From the sequence record SRR20825019_488: a stretch of 64,000 nt of DNA, one strand, 5' to 3'. Positions 2,692 through 62,609 of the stretch are shown here, in pieces. The position numbers and the translations under genes are program-made. Numbering within the stretch: position 1 is the first letter of the stretch; each line of letters opens with the position of its first letter. A model generated the notes under the pieces. That model searched no databases. It saw only the letters and a list, made by a program, of their open reading frames with translations, and had not been told where the DNA came from.

Positions 2692-2734
2692 TGCAGCACC
2701 GACTGCCTGGCGCTGCCCCGACGGTCGGATCGTT

Positions 2735-4159
2735 TCAGCGTTTCTTGCTCTTCATTCGCGCTTTCTTCCGTACCGGCCGCCCTTTCTTCAGGTCATTGTC
2801 CTGTTTGACCTTCTGACGCGGCGTAAGCCGGCTAACCTTATTAGCGAACGGGTTTTCACTGGAACGGAACTCGAAGCGAATGGGAGAACCATTGACCTTC
2901 AGCACTTTACGGAAGGTATTCTCCAGATAGCGTTTGTAAGCCCCTGGCAACGCGTCAGTCTGATTTCCATGCACCACAATCACTGGAGGGTTGGACCCAC
3001 CCTGGTGGGCGTACCGCAGCTTTATTCGACGCCCCTGCACAAGCGGCGGCTGATGTTGGGCGGTAGCATCCTGGAGGATGGCCGTCAGGCGATTGGTCGG
3101 CCACTTGGCCATCGCTGACTCATAGCAGGCGTGAACCGAATCGTACATGACGCCCACACCGGAGCCGTGAAGGGCAGATATGTAGTGCTTGTCAGCATAA
3201 TCAAGAAAGTCCAGGCGGCGCTGAACCTGCTCTTTTACCTTGGCCCGGTCGTCCGGGTCCATGCCGTCCCATTTGTTGACCGCAATCACCAGGGAACGGC
3301 CGGCATCCAGAACAAAGCCAATCAGATGAAGATCCTGGTCCACCAGACCTTCCCGGGCGTCGATAACCAGGATGACCACATGGGCGTCGTCGATAGCCTG
3401 GAGGGTCTTGATGATGGAAAACTTCTCCACCACCTCACTGACATTCTTGCGCCGGCGCACACCGGCCGTATCGATCAGTGTGTACTGGTTATCCATGCGT
3501 TCAAACGGGATGTAAACGCTATCCCGGGTGGTGCCGGGCATGTCATAGACGATCACCCGGTCCTCTCCGAGCATGCGGTTGACCAATGTTGACTTGCCCA
3601 CGTTCGGTCGCCCGACAATACCAATGCGTATGCCCGGATAACGATCGGCACGGTCCTGTCCTTCACGCTCTTCCTCGGACGGCAGCAACTCTTCCAGCAT
3701 GGAGCGAATGCCCCGGTTGTGAGAGGCGGCAATCAGATAGGTGGACTCGAAGCCCAGGCCGTAGAAATCGGAAGCGGCGATGTCGGGGTCCTGGCCATCC
3801 GTCTTGTTGACCACCAGATGCGCCCGCTTGCCGGTTTTCCGAAGATGGGCAGCAATCAGTTCGTCGCCGCCATTGAGGCCGGCCTTGCCATCTACCAGAA
3901 ACAGGACAATGTCAGCTTCCTCGACAGCCTGCATGGACTGGCGGGCCATTTCAGCGTCCAGGCCTTCCTCACCCCCGGTCAGGCCACCGGTATCAATCAC
4001 GATAAAGCGCTGCCCTTCGTAATTGCCCTCACCGTATTTACGATCACGGGTTAAGCCGGGGAAATCCGCTACAAGCGCATCCCGGGACCGCGTCATTTGA
4101 TTAAACAGTGTCGATTTGCCCACGTTGGGGCGCCCGACAAGAGCAATTACAGGGGTCAT
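2735..4159 (-). CDS. der: Ribosome biogenesis GTPase Der (EngA)
   Basis: Two GRPNVGKS P-loops, DTGG/DTAG, NKxD, C-terminal KH-like domain. Confidence 0.98.
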
Positions 4160-4221
4160 AGTCTTTCGCTACACATTAAACAGGGCCCGCGCTTCACAGC
4201 GATAGGGCCGGAAAGGAGCAC

Positions 4222-5394
4222 TCAGTCGAGCGTCCGGAGTTTCAATACCGACAGTTTACCGCTATTGCCATACACAAGAAGGTTACCGTTCTGCAGGCGC
4301 TGGAAAGGCACCCGCAGGCCCTCGTCGTCAAATTCAAGCTGACCCACCAGGCTGCCGTCTTCCAACGACAACATATGAATGTAGCCCTCGAAATCACCTA
4401 TCAACAGGTAATCCTCATAGACAACCGGCTGCGTTGGCTGCCGCCAGGATAACCGGTCCTGAACCCACAGCTCGCGACGGTCGGAACCGCGGTAGGCCGT
4501 GATATCGCCGTTGGCACCCGCGACAAAAATATTACCGTTGCCGATCATTGGTGACTGCAGGCTGGAGGCGGGACGACTCCAGATTTCCTGTCCGGTTTGC
4601 AGGTCAACCAGCGCAAGCTTGCCCTGATAGCCCACAATCATCGCTGCGCTCTCTAGAATCAGCGGCTCACCGGCCACATCAACAAGCCGTTCAAGCTCGG
4701 TACGGCCCTGCGGCTGGCCGACTTCATACTGCCAAACGGGCTGGCCGGTCTCAGTGGAGATCGCCATGAGCTTGCCGTTGGCCAGTGAAGCCAGCACAAG
4801 GTCTGCCCCGACAAGCGGCGACGCCGCTGCACGTATTGACAGGACCGGGACATCACTGTCGTATTGCCATGCCTGCTCCCCGGAGGCGGTATCAAACGCC
4901 AGCACCTTGCCATCAATGGTCTGTGTCACCACCAGGCGCCCGTTGGACTGGGGGGATGCCAACACTTCGTTGGGCAATGGCTGCCGCCAAAGCGCAGAAC
5001 CATCTTCGCGCGACAGGGCCATCAGCTCAGCATCACGGGTGACCAGGTACAGGTTTCCCTGATCGCCACCAACGCCGGCACTGATTTCCTCGTCAAGATC
5101 CCGGAACCAGAATACCTCGCCGTTTTCGGAGCCGACGGCATAAACCTCGCCATCGGCTGATGCCGCATACAAACGGTCTCCGGTGTTCAGAGGGGCGAGG
5201 TACAGGAAGTTGTCATCATGCCCGTCCCCAACACCCATACTCCAGACAGGCTCAAGCCCGACACTGGATGAAATCTCCGGAACCGGTGCAGGTTGCTCAA
5301 AGGTGTCGCTGGTACTACATCCTGCAAGGACAGCCAGTGTCAGCATACCCGCAAGCGAAAAGAGTCTGGTATGCCCGTTAACCAACCAGGGCAT
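4222..5394 (-). CDS. bamB: Outer-membrane protein assembly lipoprotein BamB
   Basis: Lipobox LAGC, PQQ-like beta-propeller repeats, GRTELERLVDV motif, position between yfgM and der. Confidence 0.95.
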   Translation of the reverse strand: MPWLVNGHTRLFSLAGMLTLAVLAGCSTSDTFEQPAPVPEISSSVGLEPVWSMGVGDGHDDNFLYLAPLNTGDRLYAASADGEVYAVGSENGEVFWFRDLDEEISAGVGGDQGNLYLVTRDAELMALSREDGSALWRQPLPNEVLASPQSNGRLVVTQTIDGKVLAFDTASGEQAWQYDSDVPVLSIRAAASPLVGADLVLASLANGKLMAISTETGQPVWQYEVGQPQGRTELERLVDVAGEPLILESAAMIVGYQGKLALVDLQTGQEIWSRPASSLQSPMIGNGNIFVAGANGDITAYRGSDRRELWVQDRLSWRQPTQPVVYEDYLLIGDFEGYIHMLSLEDGSLVGQLEFDDEGLRVPFQRLQNGNLLVYGNSGKLSVLKLRTLD

Positions 5395-6050
5395 CAGGCT
5401 CCCTCCTCAACACCAAGGTCGGATAGCTTGAGCTCAAGAATGCCGCTACGACCCTGCTGGTTCATTTCACGGGCCGCCAGATACGCTTCACGAGCCCCCT
5501 CACGATTACCCTGGGCTAGCAGGATATCGCCTTTAAGCTCGGTAAAAATAGCGCCGAAACTGCCGGTATTGTCCGTACCCTCAATGGTTGCCAAAGCCTC
5601 TTCGTACTGCTCCGCCGCGAACTGGGCGCGGGCCAGGCGGTTGCGAATAACCATTGCCAACGCTCCGCTTTCGCCGGCTTTTTCCTGCGCCCAGGTCAGG
5701 GACTCGATCGCCCCTTCCGGATCGCCCTGGTCCATAACCTGTTGGCGAGCAAGCATCAACATGCCATAAACAGCGAAGGCGCTGTCGCTGTATTCTTCTC
5801 GCAGGTTCTCGGCCACGTAGGCAACGGTATCTGCGCGATTTTCATCTGTCTCATCGCTATAGGCATTGATCAGCTCGGCAAACTGGGAAGCCGCTTCCGT
5901 ACGCTGCTGCATTTGATGGTTCTGCCAGGCCTGCCACCCGAAAACAATCGCCAGCGCCGCACCGACGCCAATCAGGAGCGAGCTGCCATTCTTCTTCCAC
6001 CAGTCCTTGATTGCCTGGACCGTTTCTTCCTCAGTACGCATTTCAGCCAT
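5394..6050 (-). CDS. yfgM: YfgM-family ancillary SecYEG/TPR protein
   Basis: N-terminal TEEE..IKDWWKKNG, single TM, ELKGDILLAQG; synteny hisS-yfgM-bamB. Confidence 0.92.
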   Translation of the reverse strand: MAEMRTEEETVQAIKDWWKKNGSSLLIGVGAALAIVFGWQAWQNHQMQQRTEAASQFAELINAYSDETDENRADTVAYVAENLREEYSDSAFAVYGMLMLARQQVMDQGDPEGAIESLTWAQEKAGESGALAMVIRNRLARAQFAAEQYEEALATIEGTDNTGSFGAIFTELKGDILLAQGNREGAREAYLAAREMNQQGRSGILELKLSDLGVEEGA

Positions 6051-6100
6051 GATGACTCCTGCAATAGATGATTATTATGCTGTAACTCGTCGGCGCGCCA

Positions 6101-7381
6101 TCAGCGGCCAAGCAATTCTTCAAGCGTCGCGGCCAGATCACCCTGAGCAACGTCTAGTTGCCCCTCGTCTGACCGTAACGGCTTAAGGCCGACCGTCCCG
6201 TTGGCAACCTCATTCTCACCCAGAATGACCGCGTAACGGGCGCCACTGCGATCAGCCTTTTTCATCTGACTCTTGAAACTGCCGCCGCCACAGTGCCCCA
6301 TAACCGTTACGCCCGGCAAAGCGTTGCGAAGGGATTCACCCAGCGCCAACGCGGGTGCCACGGTGGATTCACCCATAGCCGCAACATACACATCGACATT
6401 GCCATTGGCACTGTCTGGCACAAGGTTAAGCGTTTCCAGCAGCAGGATCAGTCGTTCGAGCCCCATGGCGAAACCGACCGCAACCGTGGGCTTGCCTCCC
6501 AATTGCTCCACCAGCCCATCATAGCGACCACCGGCGCATATCGTCCCCTGGGCACCCAGGCTGTCGGTAATCCACTCGAATACAGTTTTGCCATAATAGT
6601 CGAGCCCGCGAACCAGCTTTGGATTCACCGTATACTCAATGCCAGCCGCGTCCAGCAACGAGCGCAGTTGCCGAAAATGATCCCGAGACTCGTCGTCGAG
6701 GTAATCATCCAGACGAGGCGCGTCCACCAGAAGTCTCTGGGTATCCGGGTTCTTGCTGTCCAGAATGCGTAGCGGGTTCGAGCCAAGACGCCGTTGGCTG
6801 TCTTCGTCCAACTGCTCCCGGTAATCCGAGAGGTACGCGACCAGCGCCTCGCGGTATTCCCGACGGGCAGCAGACGTACCTATGGAATTGATTTCCAGGC
6901 GGGTGTGTTCACTCAGTCCTAGCGCGCGCCAGAGCCTGGCCGTCAACACGAGGAGCTCAGCATCAATATCCGGGCCGGTCATGCCAAAACATTCCACGCC
7001 GATCTGGTGGAACTGACGGTAACGGCCTTTTTGGGGGCGCTCATGACGAAACATGGGGCCGGTGTACCAAAGCCGGCGGGTCTGATTAAAAAGCAGACCG
7101 TGTTCTTCGGCGGCACGCACGCAGCCGGCCGTACCTTCGGGGCGCAGGGTCAGGCTGTCACCGTTGCGATCCTCAAAGGTGTACATCTCTTTCTCAACGA
7201 TATCTGTCACTTCGCCAATAGAGCGCTTGAACAGGTCAGTCTGCTCAACCACCGGCATGCGAATTTCCTGATAACCGTACTGGGAAAGCACTTTCCTGAC
7301 CGTGTCTTCCACAAACTGCCACACCGGCGTCTGCTCTGGCAGGATATCGTTCATCCCGCGGATTGCCTGGATCTTAGCCAA
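6101..7381 (-). CDS. hisS: Histidine--tRNA ligase (TTG start)
   Basis: [35 protein letters not shown] motifs. Confidence 0.98.
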
Positions 7382-7421
7382 GTTACTACCTTATCTGTGT
7401 CGGTGATTTGACGATCTGCTC

Positions 7422-8540
7422 TCAGTCGGCCGAGCGGGTAATGATCGCTTCTTCCTTTTCCTTGCGACGCGCCACTTCCTCACGGATCAGCCGTTCCAGG
7501 TCGTCGGTCAGGTTGGCATTGTCGAGCTTCTGATTAGGCTTGCCCGACGCGTAGAACAGGTTCTTGGGGCTGCCGCCGGTCAAGCCCAGGTCAGCAACCT
7601 TGGCCTCGCCCGGCCCGTTTACAATACAGCCAATGATGGCAACATCCAGGGACTCGTTGACGTCCTCCAGACGAGCCTCAAGGTCATTCATGGTCTGGAT
7701 GACATCGAAATTCTGGCGTGAGCAGCTTGGGCACGCGACGAAGTTGATACCCCGGCTGCGCAGGCGCAAGCTTTTGAGAATATCGTAGCCGACCTTGATT
7801 TCCTGCACCGGGTCTGCCGCGAGCGATACTCTGATGGTATCCCCAATGCCGTCCATCAGCAGCATGCCCAGGCCAACAGAGGACTTCACTGTCCCGGAGC
7901 GAAGGCCACCGGCCTCGGTAATGCCCAAATGCAGGGGTTGTTCTATCTGTGCAGCAATCTGACGATATGCCGCCACCGTCATGAAGACCTCTGAGGCCTT
8001 CAGGCTCACCTTGAAGTCCTGAAAATCATGACGGTCGAGAATGTCGATATGGCGCATGGCCGACTCAACCAGAGCCTCGGGTGTCGGTTCCCCGTACTTA
8101 CGCTGCAGTGCCTTTTCCAGCGAGCCTGCGTTGACGCCAATACGAATCGGGATATTGCCATCCCGCGCGGCGCTGATCACGGCGCTGACACGGTCATCCC
8201 GACCGATATTACCCGGGTTGATACGAAGACAATCAACACCCAGTTCCGCCACCCGCAGAGCAATTCGGTGATCGAAATGGATGTCAGCCACCAATGGTAC
8301 CGACACCATTGAGCGAATCTTGCCGAACGCTTCCGCAGCATCCATTGTAGGCACGGATACCCGCACAATGTCCGCTCCAGCCTCCTGCAGGGCGCGGATC
8401 TGGCCAACGGTTGCATCCACGTCACAGGTGTTGGTGTTGGTCATGCTCTGGACAGCAATAGGCGCATCGCCACCCACGGGAACATCGCCTACCATTATCT
8501 GGCGTGATTTGCGTCTTTTGATCGGAGATTCGTGATTCAT
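7422..8540 (-). CDS. ispG: HMBPP synthase IspG
   Basis: [28 protein letters not shown] and GCIVNGPGE; start taken at MNHES. Confidence 0.97.
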
Positions 8541-8575
8541 ATAGCCTGCTAACCGCAAAAGAGGGTTCGAAACGT

Positions 8576-9634
8576 TCAGATATCCAGCGAGAATTCTGCT
8601 CGGTTGTTGACGACCCGATAACCGGAAAGGTCAATCGGTTGGCCATCAAATCTTATAGATTCGATGGCATCGACTGCGCCGACAACAACGTCGATGGGCA
8701 GCCTGCCTGATACATTAATCCTGTCACCATCCCGTTGCAGGGATCCCACCAGGCGATTGCCCGCCGAATCGGTTACCTGAACCCAGCACTCATCGCTGAA
8801 TGTCATTTCCAGGCGAGCGCTGCCGACGGCAGCCGTTGGCTGGGCGCTCTCCTGAAACGCTGGCTCCGGCTCACTGGTCACCACCGGAACCTGGCTCTCA
8901 TCAATCTCATCGACAGCAGGTTGCGCAGCCGGAGCGGAATCGTCTTCAACCGTCGGGGCCGGAGAGCCAGAGACCTGCTCATTCACCTGAGGGTCCTCAG
9001 GCAGCTCTGCCAACTCGCTATTGTCCTCAACGATCGACGCTTCATCAACCGGCGCGGATAGCCTATCGGCCTCTTCCTCGGTTCCAGGCTCGGCTAACTC
9101 GGTATCGACAGTGTCGTCCACCGACACCGTCTCTTCGGACGGTTCAGGCTGCGCGGGAGCAGCCGTTTCCGAGGACACAGCCGGTTCCGTCGTGTCGCCT
9201 GTTATACCGTCCAATTCGCCCATAAAGCGCAATGCGAGAAAGGCAATTACTGCTATGGCCAGCAGGAGAAGCAGAAACTTTGCAACGCGGCGCTTGCGAC
9301 GCCTGCGACGCTCGATATCAATCAGCGGATTCGCTTCTTCTGCCTGCACTTTTTGCTGTCGTAGCGGTTCGAGCTCCTCATCCAGCGTCGCGATCACCGC
9401 ATCCGGATCAAGGTCAACCTGTCGTGCGTAGGTTCTGACATAGCCTTTAAGGAACAGTTCACTGTCGATCTGTTCATAATGCCCGTCCTCTATCGCCTGT
9501 ATTATCGCCGGGCGAAGATGCTGGGCATCGGCCACGGCGGAAACACTGAGCCCCTTCTGCTCACGCGCACGTTTGAGCAACTGGCCCGTAGGCTCACTCA
9601 GGCCCGACGGTTGTTGTGCGTCATCACTGTCCAT
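8576..9634 (-). CDS. rodZ: Cytoskeleton protein RodZ
   Basis: N-terminal HTH ([10 protein letters not shown]), basic patch plus TM, acidic linker, C-terminal CWVQVTD domain; synteny. Confidence 0.93.
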
Positions 9635-52344: not shown

Positions 52345-52463
52345 TTCACCGGATCTGAAGCATAACGGCCTTCCAGGCTGAGACATCTTAACGACACATG
52401 GGGTATGGCCGGCTGCGGTTTGCAACGGCCATCAAAAGACATACCGGACATCCGAGGGTGGCA

Positions 52464-54602
52464 ATGAACGCTAAAGCACAGGCAGTGATAACAACAATTC
52501 CAATGCAGGAAGCTTCGCTGGACATCTGGAACAGCAAGTACCAACTCAAAACCAAGACCGGCGAACCCGTCGATAAGGACATCGAAGCAACCTACGAGCG
52601 TGTTGCCACTGCCCTTGCCGAAGTGGAAAACAAAGCCAACCGCGCCAAGCACAAGAAAGAATTCGTCTGGGCCCTGCGCCACGGTGCCATCCCCGCTGGC
52701 CGCATTACCTCCAACGCCGGTGCGGAAGCCCACAAACCAGCCACGTCCACCATCAACTGCACCGTGTCTGGCTCCGTTCAGGACTCCATGAACGACATCC
52801 TGGAAAAAAACCACGAAGCCGGCCTCACCCTCAAAGCCGGTTGTGGTATTGGTTATGAATTCTCCACCCTGCGCCCCCGCGGCGCCTACGTTGCCGGTGC
52901 GGGTGCCACCACCTCCGGCCCGCTGTCGTTCATGGATATCTTCGACCGCATGTGCTTCACCGTGTCTTCCGCCGGTGGCCGCCGTGGCGCGCAGATGGCC
53001 ACCTTCGACGTACACCACCCGGACGTCATCGACTTCATCCAGGCCAAGCGTGAAGACGGCCGCCTGCGCCAGTTCAACCTGTCGCTGCTGATCACCGAAG
53101 ACTTCATCGAAGCCGTGCGCAACGGCGACGACTGGCACCTGTCGTTCCCCGTCACTGAAAAAGAAGTGGAAGACGAAGGCCTGGACCTGTCCGACGAAAC
53201 CCAGTTCGTGTACCGCGACTTCCCGATCCAGAAGGGTTACGTGGTCAATGGCGAAGGCAAGGTTGCGTGCCGCATCTACCGCACCCTGAAAGCCCAGTTC
53301 ATCTGGGACACCATCATGACCAGCACCTACGACTACGCCGAGCCAGGGTTCATCCTGATCGACAAGGTCAACCAGATGAACAACAACTGGTTCTGCGAAG
53401 ACATCCGCGCCACCAACCCCTGTGGCGAACAGCCCCTGCCCCCGTACGGCAGCTGCCTGCTGGGCTCTGTGAACCTGACCATGTTCGTGGACTACCCGTT
53501 CACCGACAAGGCCAGCTTCAACTATGAGAAGTACCGCAAAGTCGTGGGCATCTTTACCCGCATGCTGGACAACGTAGTGGAAATCAACGGCCTGCCGCTG
53601 GAAGAGCAGCGCCACGAAATTACCTACAAGCGCCGCCACGGCATGGGCATCCTCGGCCTGGGCTCCACCCTCGCCATGCTGCGTATGCCGTACGGCTCGT
53701 CCGAATCCGTGCAGTTTACCGAAGAAGTCGTACGTGAAATGGCCGTGGAAGGCTGGCGCCAGTCCCTGGCCCTGGCCGACGAAAAAGGCCCGGCGCCGAT
53801 CATGAACGACGAGTTTGAAGTCACCCCCAAGATGCTGACCAAGTGCCCGCAGCTGTCCCAGGACGGCTACAAACTGGGCGACAAGCTCAAGGGCAAGGTA
53901 CTGCACGCCAAGTACAGCAAGTACATGCAGCAGATCGCCGGCGTAGAGCCGGAGCTGATCGAGCAGCTGGCCGAGAAAGGTGGCCGCTTCACGCACCACA
54001 CCTCCATCGCGCCCACCGGCACCATCAGCCTGTCACTGGCCAACAACGCCAGTAACGGCATCGAGCCGAGCTTCTCGCACCACTACGCGCGTAACATCAT
54101 TCGCGAAGGGCGCAAGACCAAGGAAAAAGTCGACGTATTCTCCTTCGAGCTGCTGGCTTACCGCCACCTGGTTAACCCCGGTGCCATGCCCTTCTCCGAA
54201 GAAGAAGACAAGCGCCTGCCCCATTACTTCACCACGTCTGAAGACGTGACGCCGGCGCAGCACGTGGACATCCAGGCCGCGGCCCAACTGTGGGTGGACT
54301 CGTCCATCTCCAAGACCGCCAACGTGCCCCAGGACTTCGCGTATCCGGACTTCAAAGACATCTACATGTACGCCTACGACAAGGGCCTGAAGGGTTGCAC
54401 CACCTTCCGCTTTAACCCGGAAGCCTTCCAGGGCGTGCTGGTTCAGGAGAAAGACCTGGAAAACACACTGTACGAATTCACCCTGGACGACGGCAGCAAG
54501 GTGACCCTCAAGGGCAACGAACAGGTGGAGTACGACGGTGAGCTCCATAACGCCGCCAACCTGTTTGATGCGCTTAAAGAAGGCACCTACGGCAAATACT
54601 GA
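52464..54602 (+). CDS. nrdJa: Class II (B12-dependent) ribonucleotide reductase, large part
   Basis: PAGRI, TINC, GGRRGAQM, ATNPCGEQ, IAPTGTIS, KGCTTFR; no radical subunit adjacent; followed by nrdJb. Confidence 0.95.
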   Translation: MNAKAQAVITTIPMQEASLDIWNSKYQLKTKTGEPVDKDIEATYERVATALAEVENKANRAKHKKEFVWALRHGAIPAGRITSNAGAEAHKPATSTINCTVSGSVQDSMNDILEKNHEAGLTLKAGCGIGYEFSTLRPRGAYVAGAGATTSGPLSFMDIFDRMCFTVSSAGGRRGAQMATFDVHHPDVIDFIQAKREDGRLRQFNLSLLITEDFIEAVRNGDDWHLSFPVTEKEVEDEGLDLSDETQFVYRDFPIQKGYVVNGEGKVACRIYRTLKAQFIWDTIMTSTYDYAEPGFILIDKVNQMNNNWFCEDIRATNPCGEQPLPPYGSCLLGSVNLTMFVDYPFTDKASFNYEKYRKVVGIFTRMLDNVVEINGLPLEEQRHEITYKRRHGMGILGLGSTLAMLRMPYGSSESVQFTEEVVREMAVEGWRQSLALADEKGPAPIMNDEFEVTPKMLTKCPQLSQDGYKLGDKLKGKVLHAKYSKYMQQIAGVEPELIEQLAEKGGRFTHHTSIAPTGTISLSLANNASNGIEPSFSHHYARNIIREGRKTKEKVDVFSFELLAYRHLVNPGAMPFSEEEDKRLPHYFTTSEDVTPAQHVDIQAAAQLWVDSSISKTANVPQDFAYPDFKDIYMYAYDKGLKGCTTFRFNPEAFQGVLVQEKDLENTLYEFTLDDGSKVTLKGNEQVEYDGELHNAANLFDALKEGTYGKY

Positions 54603-54630
54603 TCCCGGGAACCGACACAGGACAACGAAC

Positions 54631-55320
54631 ATGACCGTTAAAATCAGCAACAAAATCGTCGGCTACCGCGTAAAGAAAGCCGACCCAGAAGCAGCACAAC
54701 CAGCCGCGCAGCCGGAAAACAAACCGGTTGAGATGAACGAATACATCGAGCGGCCGGACTTTCTGCTGGGCACCACCTACAAGATCAAGCCGCCGGTGGC
54801 CGAGCACGCGATGTACATCACCATCAATGACATCCTGCTCAACGAAGGCACCGACCACGAAAGCCGGCAGCCGTACGAAGTATTCATCAACTCCAAGTCG
54901 ATGGAACACTTCCAGTGGGTTATCGCCCTCACCCGCGTTGTCTCCGCCGTGTTCCGCAAAGGCGGCGACGTAACCTTCCTGGTGGAAGAACTGCGCAGCG
55001 TGTACGACCCCAACGGCGGCTACTTCAAGAAAGGCGGCGTATTCATGCCCTCACTTGTCGCCGAAATCGGCGCCGTGATCGAGAAGCACCTCAAGGCCAT
55101 CGGCCTGATTGAAAGCGAGGAAATGAGCGAAGTCACCAAACGCATCCTCGCCGAAAAACGCGCCGAATTCGAAGCCAGCCACACCACGGCCACGAACGAC
55201 GACAAAGCCGGCGACTACCCACCCAACGCCACCATGTGCGGCAAGTGCAGCACCAAGGCGGTGATTGTGATGGATGGGTGCGCGACTTGCCTGTCTTGTG
55301 GCGATAGTAAGTGCGGTTGA
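54631..55320 (+). CDS. nrdJb: Class II ribonucleotide reductase, small part (TSCPD-like plus C-terminal Cys cluster)
   Basis: GTTYKIK, YITIND, PYEVFIN; ends CGKC...GCATCLSCGDSKCG. Confidence 0.92.
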   Translation: MTVKISNKIVGYRVKKADPEAAQPAAQPENKPVEMNEYIERPDFLLGTTYKIKPPVAEHAMYITINDILLNEGTDHESRQPYEVFINSKSMEHFQWVIALTRVVSAVFRKGGDVTFLVEELRSVYDPNGGYFKKGGVFMPSLVAEIGAVIEKHLKAIGLIESEEMSEVTKRILAEKRAEFEASHTTATNDDKAGDYPPNATMCGKCSTKAVIVMDGCATCLSCGDSKCG

Positions 55321-55346
55321 GGTGATTGACTGCGATGTGTGATGAG

Positions 55347-55385
55347 AAGGCCTGGAGTGTGAAAGCTTCGGGCCTTTTTTGTTTT
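55347..55385 (+). terminator. Intrinsic terminator after nrdJb
   Basis: AAGGCCTGGAG-loop-CTTCGGGCCTTTTTTGTTTT. Confidence 0.85.
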
Positions 55386-55490
55386 CGCTCGGATGTAATC
55401 GCCTGACCGCTTCGTTATTACGTGGCGATATTACGACAGAGCTAGGCATCCGACTCGCAACATCTTGAAATATTGGCGGCTTTTAGGCGT

Positions 55491-55581
55491 GCGTTCTATA
55501 TTTTTGCGGAATAACGACGCGCAGTAATGCCGAAGTCACGTTTTGGAATATTGAAGCGTTCTATCAAGTACGCAGTTAGGT
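55491..55581 (+). other. Putative attI-like (or eroded attC) site; crossover G/TTAGGT at 55575-55581
   Basis: GTTAGGT is the exact complement of ACCTAAC (56980) closing cassette 1; no clear attC hairpin upstream; direct repeat GCGTTCTAT at 55491 and 55556. Confidence 0.6.
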
Positions 55582-55632
55582 ATAGGCGCTGATCGAAAAA
55601 TATCTTTATTTTTCAATAACAAGGAGAACGAA

Positions 55633-56574
55633 ATGCCAAATGTTGTAAGTATGATTAATTGGAAGGGTGGCGTGGGGAAAACATCACTTACGCTACATCT
55701 CGCGTCAGGTTTAGCTACACGGCATAGTAAGCGCGTTCTCCTGATTGACCTGGATGCTCAGTGCAACCTATCTTTTTTAGCTGTCGGCCTCTCTCCTTAT
55801 GTTGACCACACCTATAAGCGTAACGGGCCAACATTGAAAACGATTTTTGATGCATACTTTGATCGTAGTTCTCTGAATCCAAAAGATGTGATCTTGGAGA
55901 AGCAGGTTCGTGCGCGTGCCGGAAAGATATACACCCAAGTCGGTATCATCTTGTCTCACCAAGAACTCACCTTGCTAGATATGAAGCTTGCTCGTGAAAA
56001 GAGGTCGGGGAAGGACCATAGAGAGGAAACCCGATTTGAGATAGAAAAGCTTTCTGTAATTAAAAATATAATAGACTCAGTTTCGGATGAATACGATTAT
56101 GTACTTCTAGATTGCCCACCAAACGTCAATCTGGTTACCCAAAATGCTTTTTTTGCAAGCGACTACTATGTTGTTCCGGCGATTCCAGATTTTTTATCAA
56201 CCGTTGGTATCTCTTTGATTACAAAATACATGGATCAGTTCAATAAAGATTATAGTTCGATGTGGAGTTATGCAGGGCTTCCTGGAAGTTACAACGATAC
56301 AAAGTTTGGTGGAATTATTTTCAACATGGTTGACGAGTACGGTGGTGGTCCTAAGGACGGTCATCAGCAAATCATTAACTCCACTGCGTCGCAACTTGGC
56401 AAAGGAGCAGTTTTTGATAAATATGTTACGGATGGTGATGGCATGTCAGCGGCAGCACAAGTAAATCTTCCTGTATTTGCTTTTGCTGACCTACCACGAT
56501 CCCAGCAAAACGCCCAAAAGCAAGCTACGTATCTTGAGGGCGTGGTCGATGAGTTTATCACGCGAATTATATAA
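55633..56574 (+). CDS. ParA/Soj-family ATPase (cassette 1, gene 1)
   Basis: Deviant Walker A KGGVGKT, VLLIDLDAQCNLS, Walker B YVLLDCPP; RBS AAGGAG. Confidence 0.92.
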   Translation: MPNVVSMINWKGGVGKTSLTLHLASGLATRHSKRVLLIDLDAQCNLSFLAVGLSPYVDHTYKRNGPTLKTIFDAYFDRSSLNPKDVILEKQVRARAGKIYTQVGIILSHQELTLLDMKLAREKRSGKDHREETRFEIEKLSVIKNIIDSVSDEYDYVLLDCPPNVNLVTQNAFFASDYYVVPAIPDFLSTVGISLITKYMDQFNKDYSSMWSYAGLPGSYNDTKFGGIIFNMVDEYGGGPKDGHQQIINSTASQLGKGAVFDKYVTDGDGMSAAAQVNLPVFAFADLPRSQQNAQKQATYLEGVVDEFITRII

Positions 56575-56586
56575 GGTGGCTAATCT

Positions 56587-56985
56587 ATGAAGACACATGA
56601 GCTAGCCAACCAACTTGAATTGTTGGCAAAATTACTCAGAAGTATGCCAGACACTGAGTTTAGTGAAGCAAGTGGAGAGCAAGTGCAGCACTCTCTACAA
56701 CTATTTGAGAGCAAAACTACTAAGCCTTCTTCTCGTGCCAACAAATCATTGCCAAAAGGAATAGAAGAAAGCCTCTCAGGGAAATCTCCGGCTGAAATTG
56801 AAAAATTCCTTAGTTCCGAGGATGAGAACTTTTCCCTTAATAATCTCTTAGAGTTTGCGGAGCGTTTAGGTATTTCTACTTCAAAGCGGCAAAGCAAAAG
56901 TGCAGTAATAAACCTCATTACTAGGCATTTTGAGGCAAAGCAAATGCATTCGATAATTCGCAACACTAAGCCCGATGATACCTAA
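56587..56985 (+). CDS. Small hypothetical protein with C-terminal Rho-N/HeH-like motif (cassette 1, gene 2)
   Basis: 12 bp after the ParA stop; its stop TAA lies in the attC inverse core; SLNNLLEFAERLGI...SKSAVINLI pattern. Confidence 0.75.
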   Translation: MKTHELANQLELLAKLLRSMPDTEFSEASGEQVQHSLQLFESKTTKPSSRANKSLPKGIEESLSGKSPAEIEKFLSSEDENFSLNNLLEFAERLGISTSKRQSKSAVINLITRHFEAKQMHSIIRNTKPDDT

Positions 56986-57063
56986 CCAAAACAGGCACGG
57001 CGACGGCTACTCCACTGCGGCTGCGCCTCCATTCCGTAGCCGCGCGTGCTGTTGGCGTTAACG
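56980..57063 (+). repeat. attC site 1 (84 bp)
   Basis: ACCTAAC...GTTAACG; arms ACAG(G)CACG/CGTGCTGT and GCG(A)CGGCTAC/GTAGCCGCGC with typical extrahelical bases. Confidence 0.93.
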
Positions 57064-57085: not shown

Positions 57086-57733
57086 GTGTTGTCTCTGAAA
57101 GGTTTGATTGAAGAAGGTGCTGTAGCGAAACGTCTACTGAAGCCCGTTTTTTCGTGGGGTAGAGGCTCCTGGTTCAAAAGGCTTTTGGTTTTAAGTCTGT
57201 TTGGTCTGATTTTTATCACTGGTTACTACCTATTACTTCAGTCACTGCTTTCAGAGGTCAGAAAGCATGATGATCAGGTGTCAAAAGAAAGGAATCGGAT
57301 TGTAGACGCAAGTCTCTACCAAGCAACGATTGGTTTTGCGGAGCTGTGTCTTAAACCGGCAACGATAGATAAAGAGAACGCCTCTTGGTATTGCGAAAAG
57401 GCTTTGCAGTTGTATAAGAACAACAACAAAGGAACGCCACCTGAATTAAGGAATGAGATTGTCGAACGTAAGGCGTACGGGGCTATGGTTGCCGACATGG
57501 AATCTCAACTTAGAGGTATCAAGCTAGATCGACTTGATCAGACGTCCCCTGCTCTTGATTGGCTTGATCAGATATTGAGCAAAACTGGTATGTTTTTAAC
57601 ATTGTCCTTGGCTCTCTTCGGTATTTTGGCTTTGGTGTACGGCCTATATTTACACCGTGACAATTCGGAATCTGATGAGCCAGAAGGGGGTTCCAGTAAT
57701 TCTCAAAACACGTTAACAAGTGGGTCAAGCTGA
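57086..57733 (+). CDS. Two-TM membrane protein of unknown function (cassette 2)
   Basis: GTG start after AAGGAG, two hydrophobic segments flanking a helical domain with two Cys; stop falls inside attC2. Confidence 0.78.
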   Translation: MLSLKGLIEEGAVAKRLLKPVFSWGRGSWFKRLLVLSLFGLIFITGYYLLLQSLLSEVRKHDDQVSKERNRIVDASLYQATIGFAELCLKPATIDKENASWYCEKALQLYKNNNKGTPPELRNEIVERKAYGAMVADMESQLRGIKLDRLDQTSPALDWLDQILSKTGMFLTLSLALFGILALVYGLYLHRDNSESDEPEGGSSNSQNTLTSGSS

Positions 57734-57788
57734 CCGGGGTAAGTCCAACAATGTGCTTCGCACGTTGCCCCTTCGCAAAGCGTTAGGC
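57711..57788 (+). repeat. attC site 2 (78 bp, different family, damaged L' arm)
   Basis: CGTTAAC (complement of GTTAACG at 57057) ... GTTAGGC; central GTGC-TTC-GCAC hairpin; L'' GGGTCAAG lacks a matching partner. Confidence 0.78.
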
Positions 57789-57799
57789 ATGAGGGAGTT

Positions 57800-58291
57800 A
57801 TGGATAATTCTGACTACATAGCACTTGGATCGGCTGTAATTGCTTTGGCGGCTTTTGGAGTCGCCATATGGCAGGGACATATAAGCCGACGGCACAATAT
57901 TTTGTCAGTTAAGCCACGCTTTCATATTGATAAGAGCTATATCGAAGGCCTTCACTATCGGCTGGAGAGTCAGGGGCTAGGTCCTGGAGTAGTGAGAGAA
58001 TTTTCCATTCTTGTGAATGAGCAAGAAATTACCGACCCTACAGAAGATCCATGGCCCGACATATTCAAAGCTCTAGGGGTAACCGGGATCAATTATGATT
58101 TTCACATCCCGGCGGTTGGATCAACCCACGCACCCAACACCTCAAGGCAGCTGCTAAGCGTTACCTTTGCCAATATTTCAACTGACCCCAAAGTGATTGA
58201 GACGATTGATCAAGCAATAAACTTTAGGATTAAATTCAAATCACTGTATGAGAATGAGATGTTCTCTTACAAAGGGGGGGAGGATGCCTAA
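57800..58291 (+). CDS. N-terminally anchored membrane protein of unknown function (cassette 3)
   Basis: RBS GAGGGAG, one N-terminal TM, stop TAA inside GCCTAAC. Confidence 0.8.
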   Translation: MDNSDYIALGSAVIALAAFGVAIWQGHISRRHNILSVKPRFHIDKSYIEGLHYRLESQGLGPGVVREFSILVNEQEITDPTEDPWPDIFKALGVTGINYDFHIPAVGSTHAPNTSRQLLSVTFANISTDPKVIETIDQAINFRIKFKSLYENEMFSYKGGEDA

Positions 58292-58370: not shown

Positions 58371-58538
58371 GAGGCTGTAGAAAATGTCCCGAGGTATTCT
58401 GGGGTGGCGCTCATACGTGAAATTTGAAGGATTTTTCGGAGCAAAATATGCCTCAGATTTTATGAAAAGGCGCTATTTTTAGTGCGAAATTTAAACAACT
58501 CGAGGCTTCGAAATAACTCTGGGGTTTTCTACAGCCTC
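58371..58538. mobile_element. 168-bp non-coding MITE with 14-bp perfect terminal inverted repeats
   Basis: GAGGCTGTAGAAAA ... TTTTCTACAGCCTC, flanked by GTT on both sides (58368-58370 and 58539-58541). Confidence 0.88.
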
Positions 58539-58554
58539 GTTAGGCGAGAATCGA

Positions 58555-59049
58555 ATGAGCATACTAGCCACACATGCACAGGATTTCCTGAATGCCTACG
58601 AGATCTTAAGGGAGAGCAACGACTCGTTCGTTAAACAGAACATACCTGATGCAGATGAACGGTGTATCGGAAAAACTTTTGGTACTCGTCCTGCAATGGG
58701 TGTCGATATCGTTTGCTTGGCATTTTCGGTCGAATTGCATTTGAAGGAACTGCATCGGGTGTCTTATGGCAAGATCCCTCGAGGACACAAGATCATTGAG
58801 CTTTTCAAGGCTTTGTCGGGAGCAGAACAGGAAGGAGTCGTTTCTCACCATTCCATAGCACGATACGGTTGGGATTGCGCACAATTGAAATGTGAGCTAC
58901 TTGCCATCAGCGACAGTTTCGAAAAGTGGAGATACGCCTACGAGAGCACAGCCCTCCGGTACAACATTTATTTCGCGAAGGCTCTAATAGAGGCTCTGCA
59001 ATTCGTAGCAGCAAGAAAAGGAGGCGTGCATGAGGCAAGGCGCACCTAG
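58555..59049 (+). CDS. HEPN-superfamily-like protein (cassette 4)
   Basis: AFSVELHLK, RGHKIIELFKAL and FEKWRYAYE resemble the HEPN E..LK / H.L..L / RY motifs. Confidence 0.68.
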   Translation: MSILATHAQDFLNAYEILRESNDSFVKQNIPDADERCIGKTFGTRPAMGVDIVCLAFSVELHLKELHRVSYGKIPRGHKIIELFKALSGAEQEGVVSHHSIARYGWDCAQLKCELLAISDSFEKWRYAYESTALRYNIYFAKALIEALQFVAARKGGVHEARRT

Positions 59050-59143: not shown

Positions 59144-59704
59144 ATGGACACCCAGCAGTTACTTGAGGCTGCGCAGACAATCGACATTCTTCGATCAATG
59201 TTCGCCGATGATAAAAACGAATGGTTGCCGGTCATTGCAGCAATTGGGGGTGCATTCGTAGGCGGTATCTCGACCTTCGTCCCTAGCTATCTTCTGGAAA
59301 AGAGGAAGTTAAAGCAGGAGGCGCGCTCCGTAGAAACCGCCCTTGTTTCCGAAGTATCAGCCTTGCTCGAGGTTATTGAGCATCGAAGGTACGTCTACGG
59401 ATTGGAGGAGTCGGTTCACTATCTCAAGCAGAATCCTGGTAAGAAAAAGGTTTTTGCGACAAAAATACCTGAGCACTACTCACGTATTTATCAAGAGCAC
59501 ATCTCCAAGATTGGTCTGCTTCACCCCGACCTGTCTGCAAAAATCATCCGGTTTCATCAACTGATAGATTCGGGAGTCCAAGACATCTCTACAGGAGGCT
59601 TTATCGCAGAAACTGGTGGTGGCATTGAAGCTTTCGAAGAGTTACTCGAAATATTCTATTCGGCAGTGAAGATCGGCCGAGAGATTGTCGGAACAGAAAT
59701 ATAA
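59144..59704 (+). CDS. Single-TM helical protein of unknown function (cassette 5)
   Basis: RBS GGAGG, hydrophobic segment WLPVIAAIGGAFVGG, stop TAA inside ATATAAC. Confidence 0.8.
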   Translation: MDTQQLLEAAQTIDILRSMFADDKNEWLPVIAAIGGAFVGGISTFVPSYLLEKRKLKQEARSVETALVSEVSALLEVIEHRRYVYGLEESVHYLKQNPGKKKVFATKIPEHYSRIYQEHISKIGLLHPDLSAKIIRFHQLIDSGVQDISTGGFIAETGGGIEAFEELLEIFYSAVKIGREIVGTEI

Positions 59705-59759
59705 CCAGTCGCTGTAGTACGCGGTGCACTTACCCCAGTGAGAGAGGCTGCCGTTGATG
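59699..59759 (+). repeat. Truncated attC site 5 (left arm only)
   Basis: ATATAAC is the exact complement of GTTATAT (59121); CAGTCGCTGTAG follows but there is no complementary right arm. Confidence 0.7.
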
Positions 59760-60320
59760 GACGAAGAGGAATCCCTAAACAGAGCAATTCACGAAGATGT
59801 GAAGCTCTACCAATACAACCCCAACTGGCCAGCAATGTTCCAGGATGAGCGGGACCGCCTCCTTCATTTGTTTCCGGGTGAGTTTCTGGCGATCGAACAT
59901 ATCGGCAGCACCGCAGTACCCGGCCTATCGGCCAAGCCGATCATCGATATCCTGGCGGGGGTAGATTCGATGTCACGGGCCGATGAGTTAATGGAACCGT
60001 TGTGCCAGTCAAAATACGCTACCTCAATGGATTTCAATGCCTCGTTAGTGGATCGGCGTTGGCTTATGCGATGGGCCGAGGGGCGCAGGACACATCACCT
60101 GCATCTTATGGTGTTCGGTAGTCAGGAGTGGGATCGGCGCCTGGCCTTTCGGAACATACTTCGTGCCAATACGGAACTGGCACAACGGTATGAGCAAAAT
60201 AAGCGGATGTGGGTGGCGGAATTCCGTTCGGATAGAGAGGCCTATACTGCGGCTAAAGCAGATTTTATACGGGAGGCATTGAACCACTGCAACCCAGCTT
60301 CAGGACACAAGATCAGATGA
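59757..60320 (+). CDS. GrpB-family (nucleotidyltransferase-fold) protein
   Basis: YNPNWP..F..E, IEHIGSTAVPGLSAKPIIDI, HHLHL, FRNILR, YTAAK. Confidence 0.9.
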   Translation: MDEEESLNRAIHEDVKLYQYNPNWPAMFQDERDRLLHLFPGEFLAIEHIGSTAVPGLSAKPIIDILAGVDSMSRADELMEPLCQSKYATSMDFNASLVDRRWLMRWAEGRRTHHLHLMVFGSQEWDRRLAFRNILRANTELAQRYEQNKRMWVAEFRSDREAYTAAKADFIREALNHCNPASGHKIR

Positions 60321-60670
60321 GCGAATTCGTCGATAACCTCAATGATGTATTTTGCCAGTTCGGCCCGGTTTCCGTTCGGCGTATGTTCGGTGGCTATGGT
60401 GTGTACCACGATGGCGTGATGTTTGGCCTTGTTGCGGATGATGTTCTGTATCTGAAGGTCGATGGGGAATCGATGGGGCGGTTTACAGAGCTGGATTTGG
60501 AGCCGTTCGAATACGAGAAAAATGGCGCTAAGATTAAGATGTCTTACTACATGGCACCGGAGAGCATTTTCGAGGATTCTGAAGAGGCAAAAGAATGGGC
60601 AGAGCTGGCATTCAATGCGGCGCTCCGGGCCAGGAAACCAGCAGCAAGAACCAAGGCAAACAAGAAATGA
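60317..60670 (+). CDS. TfoX/Sxy N-terminal domain protein
   Basis: RRMFGGYGVY, MFGLV, LYLKVD, MSYY; ATGA overlap with the GrpB gene. Confidence 0.9.
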   Translation: MSEFVDNLNDVFCQFGPVSVRRMFGGYGVYHDGVMFGLVADDVLYLKVDGESMGRFTELDLEPFEYEKNGAKIKMSYYMAPESIFEDSEEAKEWAELAFNAALRARKPAARTKANKK

Positions 60671-60750
60671 CCGCCTACGTAATCGTCCATGGACTTACCC
60701 CGGTACAGTAGGCGCTCCTAGCCTTTGATCGGAGCATAAGAGGAATTTTC

Positions 60751-61505: not shown

Positions 61506-62609
61506 ATGACCGCTACCCTCACCATGGATCATTTGCGCCGCTACGCCATCTCGCGCAGTCTCTTCAAGCCGACCACTTTGGCACGTGCGATCAATAAACT
61601 GGGTTTTGTCCAGCTCGACCCAATACGAGCGCCGGCACGGGCGCAGGATTTGACGCTCCGCCATCGTGTTATCGACTACCAGGCGGGTGACCTGGAGGCT
61701 CGCTACCCGCGCCTGGCGGTCGAGGAAGATTTCTTTATCAACTACGGGGTTCTGCCCCGCACCACGCAGCGCCTTATGCACCCGCGCACGGCGCGCACCG
61801 AGTGGCCACGCTCACGCTGGGAACAGGCGCAGGCGGTGCAGGAATTTGTGCAAAGCCGTGGTGTCGTTCACCCGCGCGAGGTGGACTCAGCCTTCGAGCA
61901 TGGCACCACCAAGAATTGGTTCGGCGGTAATAGCCGTGCCAGTACGCAGCTCCTGGACGGCATGCATTATCGTGGGCTGCTGCGTGTGGCGAAGCGCGAA
62001 GGCGGGGTACGCCTGTATGCGCCGCCGCTCGCTGATGAGCTCGACGCGGTGAACCCGGATACCACTCTGGACGCATTGGTCGACGTCGCAGTCGCAAAGT
62101 ATGCCCCGCTGCCTGCGGCTACGCTCAGCCGCCTGGTAACGAGCGTGAGTTCTTCAGCGGTCCCGCAGTGGCGCGAGCGTCGTCGTGAAGCACTCGCGCG
62201 TGCAAAGGCTCGCCTGCCCCAGGCGACAGTTGATGGCTGTCGCTGGTTTTGGCCCATCGGCGAGAATCCTGGCAGTCGCCGCTTTGCGAGTGACAATGTG
62301 CTGGATGACCGCCTGCGCCTACTGGCGCCCTTCGATCCTTTAGTTTGGGACCGCGATCGCTTTGAGCGTTTCTGGGGCTGGGCCTACCGTTTTGAGGCCT
62401 ACACTCCGGCACCAAAGCGGGTGCGTGGTTACTATGCACTACCTATGCTGTGGCGCGGTCATGTCATAGGCTGGGCTAATGCCGCCGTACGTAATGGGCA
62501 ACTGGAGCTAGAGCCAGGGTACGTGCGCGGACATGCCCCAGACGACACCGCGTTCAAGCCAGCGTTGCAGGACGAGCGGGTACGCCTCGAGCGCTTTCTT
62601 TCGCTGTGA
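61506..62609 (+). CDS. YcaQ/AlkZ-family (HTH_42) DNA glycosylase
   Basis: VQLDPI (QxD), LAPFDPLVWDRDR, YRFEAYTPAPKR.RGYYALP. Confidence 0.88.
   Translation: MTATLTMDHLRRYAISRSLFKPTTLARAINKLGFVQLDPIRAPARAQDLTLRHRVIDYQAGDLEARYPRLAVEEDFFINYGVLPRTTQRLMHPRTARTEWPRSRWEQAQAVQEFVQSRGVVHPREVDSAFEHGTTKNWFGGNSRASTQLLDGMHYRGLLRVAKREGGVRLYAPPLADELDAVNPDTTLDALVDVAVAKYAPLPAATLSRLVTSVSSSAVPQWRERRREALARAKARLPQATVDGCRWFWPIGENPGSRRFASDNVLDDRLRLLAPFDPLVWDRDRFERFWGWAYRFEAYTPAPKRVRGYYALPMLWRGHVIGWANAAVRNGQLELEPGYVRGHAPDDTAFKPALQDERVRLERFLSL

Follow-up and report, generated by a model that had tools for sequence, protein, structure and literature searches.

A two-gene integron cassette encoding a ParA-type ATPase and a predicted helix-extension-helix partner fits the minimal subtype of the ParA-HeH family

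In this study, a 64,000-nt stretch of DNA from sequence record SRR20825019_488 (hereafter, the window) was analysed, and two adjacent genes in it, encoding a ParA-type ATPase and a small partner protein, were found to constitute a bona fide two-gene integron cassette that has moved as a unit. Judging from the sequences, the pair fits the minimal subtype of the predicted ParA-HeH family, in which a ParA ATPase is combined with a protein containing a helix-extension-helix (HeH) domain. The cassette is probably a minimal, effector-less ParA-HeH conflict system, most likely directed against phages or plasmids, and a defence role of the pair is likely but unproven. The new observations are the carriage of such a pair on an integron cassette, the presence of relatives in the P2 old/tin hotspot and in the P4 int-psu hotspot (the latter with three intact copies and one decayed), and a ParA that is far more conserved than its partner.

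Results

The pair is delimited and mobilised as one cassette

The complete cassette extends from the GTT core upstream of the pair to the GTT core of its attC site (55576..57060; 1,485 bp), and all of its features described below lie on the forward (+) strand of the window. It opens with an AT-rich leader of 57 nt (55576..55632) starting with the core GTTAGGT, followed by an ATG-initiated gene for an ATPase of the ParA clade (55633..56574; 313 amino acids (aa)), a 12-bp spacer with a GGTGG ribosome-binding motif (56575..56586), the partner gene, which also starts with ATG (56587..56985; 132 aa), and an attC of 81 nt (56981..57061; R'' core ACCTAAC, R' core GTTAACG). These open reading frames (ORFs) and their spacing confirmed the layout of a single cassette with a 313-aa ParA and a 132-aa partner 12 bp apart that a first-pass annotation of the window had given. 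The R'' core overlaps the stop codon of the partner gene, and since the attC begins at this codon, the cassette has no third gene. Nothing attC-like was found in the spacer between the two genes. The bottom strand of the attC folds into an imperfect hairpin (-19 kcal/mol, z -1.27), and the site belongs to a repeat family (D1) with further copies at 58286 and 59044, giving three copies in the window. The guanine-cytosine (GC) content of the cassette was 41-49%, as compared to 57-60% in the flanks.

Mobility of the pair was evident from a metagenome contig (L041) that matched the window with 94.8% identity over 55575-57060 only, the DNA on both sides being foreign to the window. Upstream of the shared block, which retains the cassette leader, L041 carries a different attC ending with GTTAGGT; downstream, its attC aligns with that of the window through 57060 and has the R'' core ACCTGAC, so it had been missed by the strict search pattern. 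The breaks fall at GTT cores, as integrase-mediated cassette exchange predicts, and the limits 55576-57057 given earlier are therefore the true cassette ends, essentially exact. The earlier claim that the two genes, with no attC between them, move as a unit was borne out by the same match. In the window as well as in L041, L045 and L046, the ParA start codon is preceded at 55-58 nt by a GTTRRRY core. When 22 loci were examined, strict cassette cores were present at both ends of the pair in the window, L045 and L046 and at one end only in L042 and L050, and a relaxed GTTAGCT core was judged by eye to lie upstream of the pair in L003, L004 and L044. The other loci have no visible cassette ends, so the pair also moves outside integrons.

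Contigs from RNA libraries gave a weak hint that the pair is transcribed. In two metatranscriptome libraries, the attC was found with other flanks, the breaks lying exactly at 56981 and 57061. In two libraries of different studies, contigs matched the window without a single difference at 56445-56711 and 56591-56758, the former bridging ParA, the spacer and the partner gene. These contigs leave most of ParA uncovered, which is no evidence of silence. A promoter scan returned four sites where 3.0 were expected by chance, none of them within the cassette leader, so no promoter is claimed.

The ATPase carries the motifs of a ParA-type switch

The 313-aa protein matched Pfam AAA_31 (E 2.8e-35), CbiA (E 3.7e-14) and the PHROG family of ParA-like partition proteins (E 9e-43). 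Its AlphaFold2 (AF2) model, with a predicted local distance difference test (pLDDT) value of 85.9 and a predicted template modelling score (pTM) of 0.89, gave ParA/Soj 8ray as the top Foldseek match (E 4e-15, target TM 0.87), and the chromosomal ParA/Soj structures 8ray, 2bek and 6iub matched at E of ca. 1e-14 and target TM 0.84-0.88 with 17-21% sequence identity. A deviant Walker A motif (N9-W-K11-G-G-V-G-K16-T), an A' motif (D39-L-D41) and a Walker B motif (V-L-L-D160) are present, and K11, K16, D39, D41 and D160 are invariant in 25 homologues, in agreement with the first-pass annotation, which had described a ParA/Soj-type ATPase with intact deviant Walker A and Walker B motifs. The ATPase has the full set of catalytic motifs known from ParA-type switches, which dimerise and associate with DNA.

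Between beta2 and the Walker B strand, the protein has an enlarged region of ca. 110 residues (46-155); the aligned Soj chains are 243-264 aa in total as compared to 313 aa here. In this sub-lineage, the region after beta2 is not strongly variable: residues 61-100 were 62-65% identical among homologues, and residues 101-140 reached 94%. The residues N9, V14 and Q43 (in D39-L-D41-A-Q43) correspond to the marks of the PriB1/ConB1 ParAs considered in the Discussion, although these marks are not exclusive to that clade. The ParA family is large, with 881 clusters at E <= 1e-20, yet of unusual uniformity, nearly all members being 307-317 aa long and 60-88% identical. Its sources include Xanthomonas, Pseudomonas, Burkholderia, Aeromonas, Yersinia and Azospirillum and extend even to Paenibacillus and Oscillibacter.

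The partner is a predicted HeH adaptor

An alignment of partner homologues (A1) and the AF2 model divide the 132-aa partner into an N-terminal amphipathic helix (residues 1-22, 56587..56652; helix at residues 3-18 in the model), a disordered linker with low pLDDT and low identity (residues 23-58, 56653..56760) and a helical domain that ends in a Rho-N/SAP-type HeH according to A1, the model and Rho_N matches (residues 59-127, 56761..56967). The pLDDT of the model was 72, falling below 50 over residues 23-32 and 37-52. In A1, M1, K2, T3, H4, L10, L17 and P21 of the N-terminus are invariant and E5 and R18 occur in at least 90% of the rows, while in the HeH domain R101, Q102, A106, N109, R113 and E116 are invariant. 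Partner homologues numbered 64 in a set of 5.8 billion proteins and 91 representative clusters among 1.84 billion; they are ca. 130-160 aa long, and all are named only 'hypothetical protein'.

The assignment of the C-terminal domain was supported by distant partners, three of which exceeded the cut-off of Pfam Rho_N (L014, E 9.9e-11; L013, E 3.4e-10; L011, E 2.8e-7) and which also gave weaker HeH and SAP matches; the partner homologue of a Pantoea plasmid matched Rho_N at E 6.7e-4. Residues 70-121 of the model aligned with the Rho N-terminal domain 1a62 (Z 5.2, root-mean-square deviation 2.3, 48 residues), and several SAP and LEM domains aligned at Z 3.5-4.3, values that are weak taken alone. 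The nearest named Atlas cluster (score 0.80) has Rho_N on 68% of its members and serves as a lead only. Family and profile searches gave no match to a ParB, helix-turn-helix or ribbon-helix-helix (RHH) family, and the all-helical model contains neither the N-terminal strand of an RHH protein nor a ParB domain. The description of the partner in the first-pass annotation, as not ParB-like and with a helix-extension-helix C-terminus, therefore stands, and the partner is supported as a predicted Rho-N/SAP-type HeH nucleic-acid-binding adaptor. Residues 1-22 are proposed, by analogy, to be a peptide that docks on and regulates ParA.

Other searches with the partner were uninformative. The Foldseek comparison with PDB structures that the first-pass annotation had recommended returned nothing at E <= 0.001, the A1 profile retrieved only designed coiled coils (E 0.04) from the PDB sequences, and PADLOC, NCBIfam and PHROGs gave weak, sub-threshold matches, none of them interpretable. 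A reading of the partner as a HEPN protein (RiboL-PSP) was rejected, as the match reached 19.1 bits against a cut-off of 28.4 and no Rx4-6H motif is present in the invariant columns; seven residues lie between R113 and H121, and the latter position is occupied by either H or D. A literature search pairing RiboL-PSP with ParA found nothing related. A structure prediction of two ParA chains, two ATP and the partner, made without alignments or controls, scored 0.01 and was not counted.

The two genes stay linked while the partner diverges

A scan of genome contigs with the single partner sequence found nothing, and a profile scan found 16 loci. In all 16, the partner is immediately preceded by a ParA homologue; in L002 the match covers the C-terminal 134 residues only and represents a remnant. 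Among metagenome or viral loci, ParA precedes the partner in 37 of 45, and in 17 of 17 in the close family; five of the other eight have too little upstream DNA to judge, and three (L064-L066) are truly without ParA. Certain contigs occur in two collections (L047 is L003, L048 is L004 and L094 is L084). The first-pass annotation had tied its reading to the co-occurrence of the two genes elsewhere, and these counts show that they do co-occur.

Conservation differs markedly between the two proteins. Mean pairwise identity over seven paired loci was 82% for ParA versus 52% for the partner. Within the partner, linker residues 31-60 showed only 18-34% mean pairwise identity, and the N-terminal helix and the best-conserved HeH blocks showed 63-78%, with 66-78% for the HeH blocks by themselves. 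Partners that were found through ParA alone begin with MKTHEL in L017 (a Pantoea plasmid) and in L096 and L097 (P4-like satellites), with IKTHEL in L098 (a third satellite) and with MKSHDL in L095 (a P2-like phage).

The pair is rare. The partner was present in none of 401 sampled genomes of the phylum, and the window partner had no tblastn match (E 1e-3) in 72,556 plasmid or 50,697 phage records. The plasmid records with a ParA of >50% identity were two Pantoea plasmids of identical length and one Klebsiella record of 5.4 Mb, evidently a chromosome. A scan of viral contigs with the Pantoea-type partner gave no match.

Relatives occupy hotspots of P2-like phages as well as of P4-like satellites

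All three P4-like satellites that were found (IMG/VR contigs) have the order int, ParA (52-53% identity), partner, psu and a sid-like gene; in the int-psu slot, one of them additionally carries an AbiA-like gene and another carries two unknown genes. A K. pneumoniae record contains a decayed copy of the pair in the int-psu slot, and blastn with this Klebsiella copy found no match in 5,426 complete E. coli genomes. In a P2-like phage, ParA (77% identity) and the partner lie beside gpQ, the portal gene, on the flank that in P2 harbours old/tin. The main text of Rousset et al. 2022 (PMC9122126) shows experimentally that the P4 int-psu and P2 gpA-gpQ hotspots hold anti-phage systems. At another locus (L003), the neighbours of the pair are putAbiC, DUF4145 and PIN genes.

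Among the loci whose neighbours were examined, two relatives were on plasmid-like carriers. On an IMG/VR contig of 37,957 nt (L084), positions 1621-6154 contain, in this order, a type Ib ParA paired with a partner of 96 aa, a Rep_3 gene, the ParA-HeH pair and a serine resolvase gene, so that two ParA systems stand side by side; this 'viral' contig looks like a plasmid or phage-plasmid. On a 204-kb plasmid of Pantoea agglomerans (L017), which has a separate 402-aa ParA elsewhere, the genes flanking the pair within 3302-9339 encode a divergent AAA ATPase of 763 aa and an RNase A-like toxin together with a contact-dependent-inhibition immunity protein; its surroundings are a conflict-gene neighbourhood. 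A k-mer scan for iterated centromere repeats, covering 300 nt upstream and 250 nt downstream of the pair at eight loci, found at most two-copy 8-9-mers, a scan that degenerate sites could escape.

A distant ParA-like gene (27% identity, 357 aa) and a DUF3024 gene were seen at 2521-4074 of Salmonella phage ST160 (L093), in the interval that separates the c2 repressor from the gene 24 antiterminator in P22-like phages. The corresponding slot of lambda holds rexAB.

The cassette lies in an integrase-less attC cluster

The pair stands at the start of a low-GC stretch (ca. 55.4-60.7 kb, 41-50% GC) within DNA of 55-62% GC. The ORFs at 52398-54602 and 54538-55320 upstream are presumably a split class II ribonucleotide reductase gene, nrdJ, the second being nrdJb. 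A terminator-like hairpin follows ORF 54538-55320 on the forward strand (55344..55379), and between this terminator and the cassette lie 188 nt of junction DNA (55388..55575, no strand assigned), which have no counterpart in G001, the nearest genome at 64% shared words. The junction contains two copies of a 9-bp direct repeat, GCGTTCTAT, and is not attC-like (fold z-scores +0.31 and -0.65).

The window is chromosomal, its flanks being syntenic with G001. Homology to G001 stops at 55387 and resumes at ca. 60691; at the same site, G001 has ca. 2.6 kb of different cassette-like DNA and lacks the pair. No integron integrase was detected in the 64-kb window by tblastn with the IntI of G001 (best E 0.38). 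In G001 itself, this integrase is encoded at a distance of ca. 2 Mb, next to a copy of the window attC with 94% identity. Neither intI nor Pc nor attI was found in the window, and the array does not count as a complete integron. The segment 55388-60690 is thus a variable, integrase-less attC cluster downstream of nrdJ. The pair is the first cassette of the array within the window, and the first-pass annotation had regarded this position as the usually best-expressed one; in an integrase-less cluster, that argument has no basis and was dropped.

Several other features of the array were noted. The ORFs at 57086-57733, 57800-58291, 58555-59049 and 59144-59704 belong to no Pfam or NCBIfam family, and their PADLOC matches were weak at most (E of ca. 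0.03). An ORF of the GrpB family (59754-60320) overlaps a TfoX_N ORF (60317-60670) by 4 nt, and the two resemble a second two-gene cassette. Between two attC-like cores, 58373-58545 wholly contains no ORF of at least 40 aa; the segment is bracketed by perfect 14-nt inverted repeats (58371-58384 and 58525-58538), after which GTTAGGC follows, and could represent either a cassette devoid of ORFs or an attC of unusual length. Another short repeat, ACCGGGGTAAGTCCA, which differs from the main attC family, occurs near cassette boundaries at 57733-57747, 59725-59742 and 60690-60704, with one copy in one orientation and two in the other. Just past the array, in DNA common to G001, lies an ORF for an AlkZ-like DNA glycosylase (61506-62609; Pfam E 2.1e-39).

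Discussion

The first-pass annotation had considered the pair an undescribed system. This did not hold, since a preprint by Li, Burroughs and Aravind (bioRxiv 10.64898/2026.10.19.760177; 22 Oct 2026) had defined the ParA-HeH system on purely computational grounds, with a minimal subtype of two genes among its forms. According to its main text, ParA-HeH lies in ConB1, an immunity-associated branch of ParA, and has four subtypes, of which subtype 1 is the minimal one; its core combines a ParA that bears an insert behind beta2 with a fast-evolving variant-HeH protein that has helical extensions, and the HeH proteins are sorted into 22 clusters (PHeH1-22). The marks given there for PriB1/ConB1 are an Asn as the first residue of Walker A, a Val within it and a Gln two residues after DxD. 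The window pair resembles the minimal subtype in being a two-gene unit whose ParA has these marks and an enlarged region after beta2, and in having as its second gene a fast-evolving HeH gene with an N-terminal helical extension and no effector gene. It differs in its carriage on an integron cassette, the words 'integron' and 'satellite' being absent from the main text of the preprint, and in the distribution of its variability: ParA and most of the insert are conserved and the partner linker is variable, and the partner has an invariant N-terminal helix where that of the preprint is variable.

Among the ParA-HeH subtypes, only the three-gene one has experimental support, as far as the preprint describes it: a representative of subtype 4, which includes a HEPN nuclease, was shown to be antiphage. 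We infer that this example, reference 98 of the preprint, is RemAIN of the Salmonella prophage Gifsy-1, for which the RemA ATPase, the RemI immunity protein and the RemN HEPN nuclease are described as one functional unit (PMC13043305). RemAIN is similar to the window pair in that an ATPase and a small 'immunity' protein act as a unit in phage defence and prophage competition. In a comparison by description only, it differs by its third gene, RemN, which encodes a HEPN anticodon nuclease effector that the window cassette does not have.

The defence or conflict reading is the one best supported, because relatives of the pair are found in exactly the P4 int-psu and P2 gpQ-side slots that hold anti-phage systems. 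The first-pass annotation had suggested an ATPase and adaptor repurposed for defence, plasmid interference or cargo positioning; of this, the conflict or defence part gained the most support from these hotspots and is still unproven. The main text of Rousset et al. 2022 (PMC9122126) does not use 'ParA' as a whole word, 'ParA' is likewise absent from the main texts of an integron-defence preprint, a 2026 paper on the P2/P4 hotspots and a survey of integron functions, and it appears once in the main text of a cassette-screen preprint; the supplementary material of these works may list such systems. A literature search joining ParA-like ATPases with anti-phage activity found no paper. The occurrence of the same cassette in another array, the variable site in G001, the low GC content and the rarity of the pair speak for an accessory, mobile nature.

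The N-terminal peptides of ParB, ParG and MinE control their ATPases. By analogy, the N-terminal helix of the partner, with K2 and R18, may dock on ParA and control its ATP cycle, and the HeH domain would recognise invader DNA or a DNA structure. Upon recognition, ParA-ATP would be released or recruited and would assemble on the foreign DNA or the nucleoid, by which the replication, segregation or packaging of the invader would be blocked. This mechanism follows the model of the preprint that defined ParA-HeH, whose main text posits the HeH protein as a negative regulator of ParA and proposes that HeH senses invader DNA and that the released ParA polymerises on DNA or blocks the ParB of the invader. 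A possible though doubtful form of it is an effector-less immunity that works as partition in reverse, where HeH would mark phage or plasmid DNA, the MKTHE helix would recruit and gate ParA, and ParA-ATP would assemble on the marked DNA and immobilise or mis-sort it, keeping it from replication, segregation and packaging with neither a nuclease nor cell death.

Several points weigh against a conflict role. The two-gene form of ParA-HeH is known from a computational preprint only, and no effector domain is present in the pair. The preprint stresses arms-race variability of the ParA insert, and the high conservation of ParA and most of its insert here (82%, and 94% over residues 101-140) does not fit such variability. 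PADLOC (2023) has no matching model, the best match, PDC-M28B (E 2e-4), being limited to the Walker A region. At many loci the pair forms an isolated islet among housekeeping genes (pilD/coaE, trpE/pilS, petA and icmF) without defence neighbours, and two relatives are close to genes for plasmid replication, one adjoining a Rep_3 gene in L084 and the other ca. 3.6 kb from repA in L017. The near-identical metagenome loci L064, L065 and L066 have a Chloroflexi-type partner (MKTHELADML...) with no ParA within 4 kb upstream; its reading frame begins 12 codons earlier, and it may be an orphan or re-wired partner. Distant partners were retrieved through the MKTHE pattern, so the N-terminal conservation is partly an artefact of the search. 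Contigs from RNA libraries may contain DNA and are therefore no proof of transcription.

The pair might instead be an accessory partition or maintenance module, that is, a type I-like par system with an HeH centromere-binding protein that stabilises plasmids or the plasmid state of P4-like elements, captured by an integron by chance and without a role in this chromosome. ParF-ParG of TP228 and delta-omega of pSM19035 likewise combine a Walker-type ParA with a small DNA-binding partner, and the N-terminal tail of such type Ib partners stimulates the ParA ATPase; the partner here has the same build of N-terminal peptide, linker and DNA-binding domain known from ParA-adaptor pairs. The solved structures nearest to the window ParA are segregation ParA/Soj proteins, and the delta protein (2oze) also matched its model (E 5.9e-12). 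The copy on L084 directly follows a Rep_3 initiator gene and precedes a resolvase gene, the Pantoea copy is close to repA, and the pair sits in the int-psu slot of satellites akin to P4, which can persist as a plasmid. An RHH partner with homologues by plasmid rep genes, which the first-pass annotation had set against its own reading, was found in part: such homologues exist in L084 and L017, but the partner is not of the RHH type, its model having no RHH strand or ParB domain, whereas the type Ib partners are RHH proteins. Both plasmid-like carriers encode a further ParA of the canonical kind, which in G402 is of type Ib and accompanied by a small partner and in the Pantoea plasmid is the 402-aa protein, so the pair is not the partition system of these carriers. 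Moreover, the k-mer scan of eight loci, which may miss degenerate sites, showed no iterated centromere-like repeats near the pair, the window contains no replicon and most loci are chromosomal islets or cassettes without one, and the window partner is without a match in the plasmid and phage records. A partition role appears unlikely.

A system that positions a host structure or cargo in the cell, like McdAB, ParC/ParP or PomXYZ and with no part in conflict, would suit the general behaviour of ParA/MinD ATPases, which together with small adaptors bearing N-terminal activating peptides position many cargos. It appears very improbable, since no conserved cargo genes lie nearby, neighbours differ at every locus, the pair is missing from G001 at the same site and from all 401 sampled genomes of the phylum, and it is carried on cassettes, phages and satellites; in its favour, the ParA-HeH preprint includes in PriB1 the ParAs that localise chemotaxis receptors and carboxysomes. 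An addiction module of the toxin-antitoxin kind seems somewhat less improbable than that, although less credible than a partition module. Unrestrained ParA would be toxic, for example by binding the nucleoid and blocking replication or division, the partner would neutralise it, and cassette arrays and mobile elements would be stabilised, with any phage defence being secondary. Two-gene cassettes of chromosomal integrons are described as often being array-stabilising toxin-antitoxin modules (PMC13108822, PMC11023631), the strict linkage and patchy distribution of the pair are as expected for one, the preprint posits negative regulation of ParA by the HeH protein, and the small protein of RemAIN, if its inferred link to subtype 4 is correct, is called an immunity protein. 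Yet neither protein has a known toxin domain, conservation is higher in ParA, whose catalytic motifs are intact as is typical of a functional switch, the gene for the putative antitoxin comes second, and a predicted DNA-binding HeH domain on a long linker is unlike simple sequestering antitoxins.

A minimal ParA-HeH conflict system therefore remains the favoured interpretation of the cassette. ParA/MinD ATPases are textbook positioning machines, and their use in immunity was proposed only recently, by computation alone. The cassette described here adds integron cassettes to the vehicles of the ParA-HeH family and provides a compact, naturally delimited and mobile example of it, which is convenient as a minimal test case, with the invariant N-terminal helix of the partner singled out as the first residues of interest. 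Since close relatives occur in the P2/P4 hotspots and plaque assays in laboratory E. coli are routine there, the question of defence is directly testable. If the two-gene form does defend, its mechanism would be unlike that of nuclease, NADase or membrane effectors.

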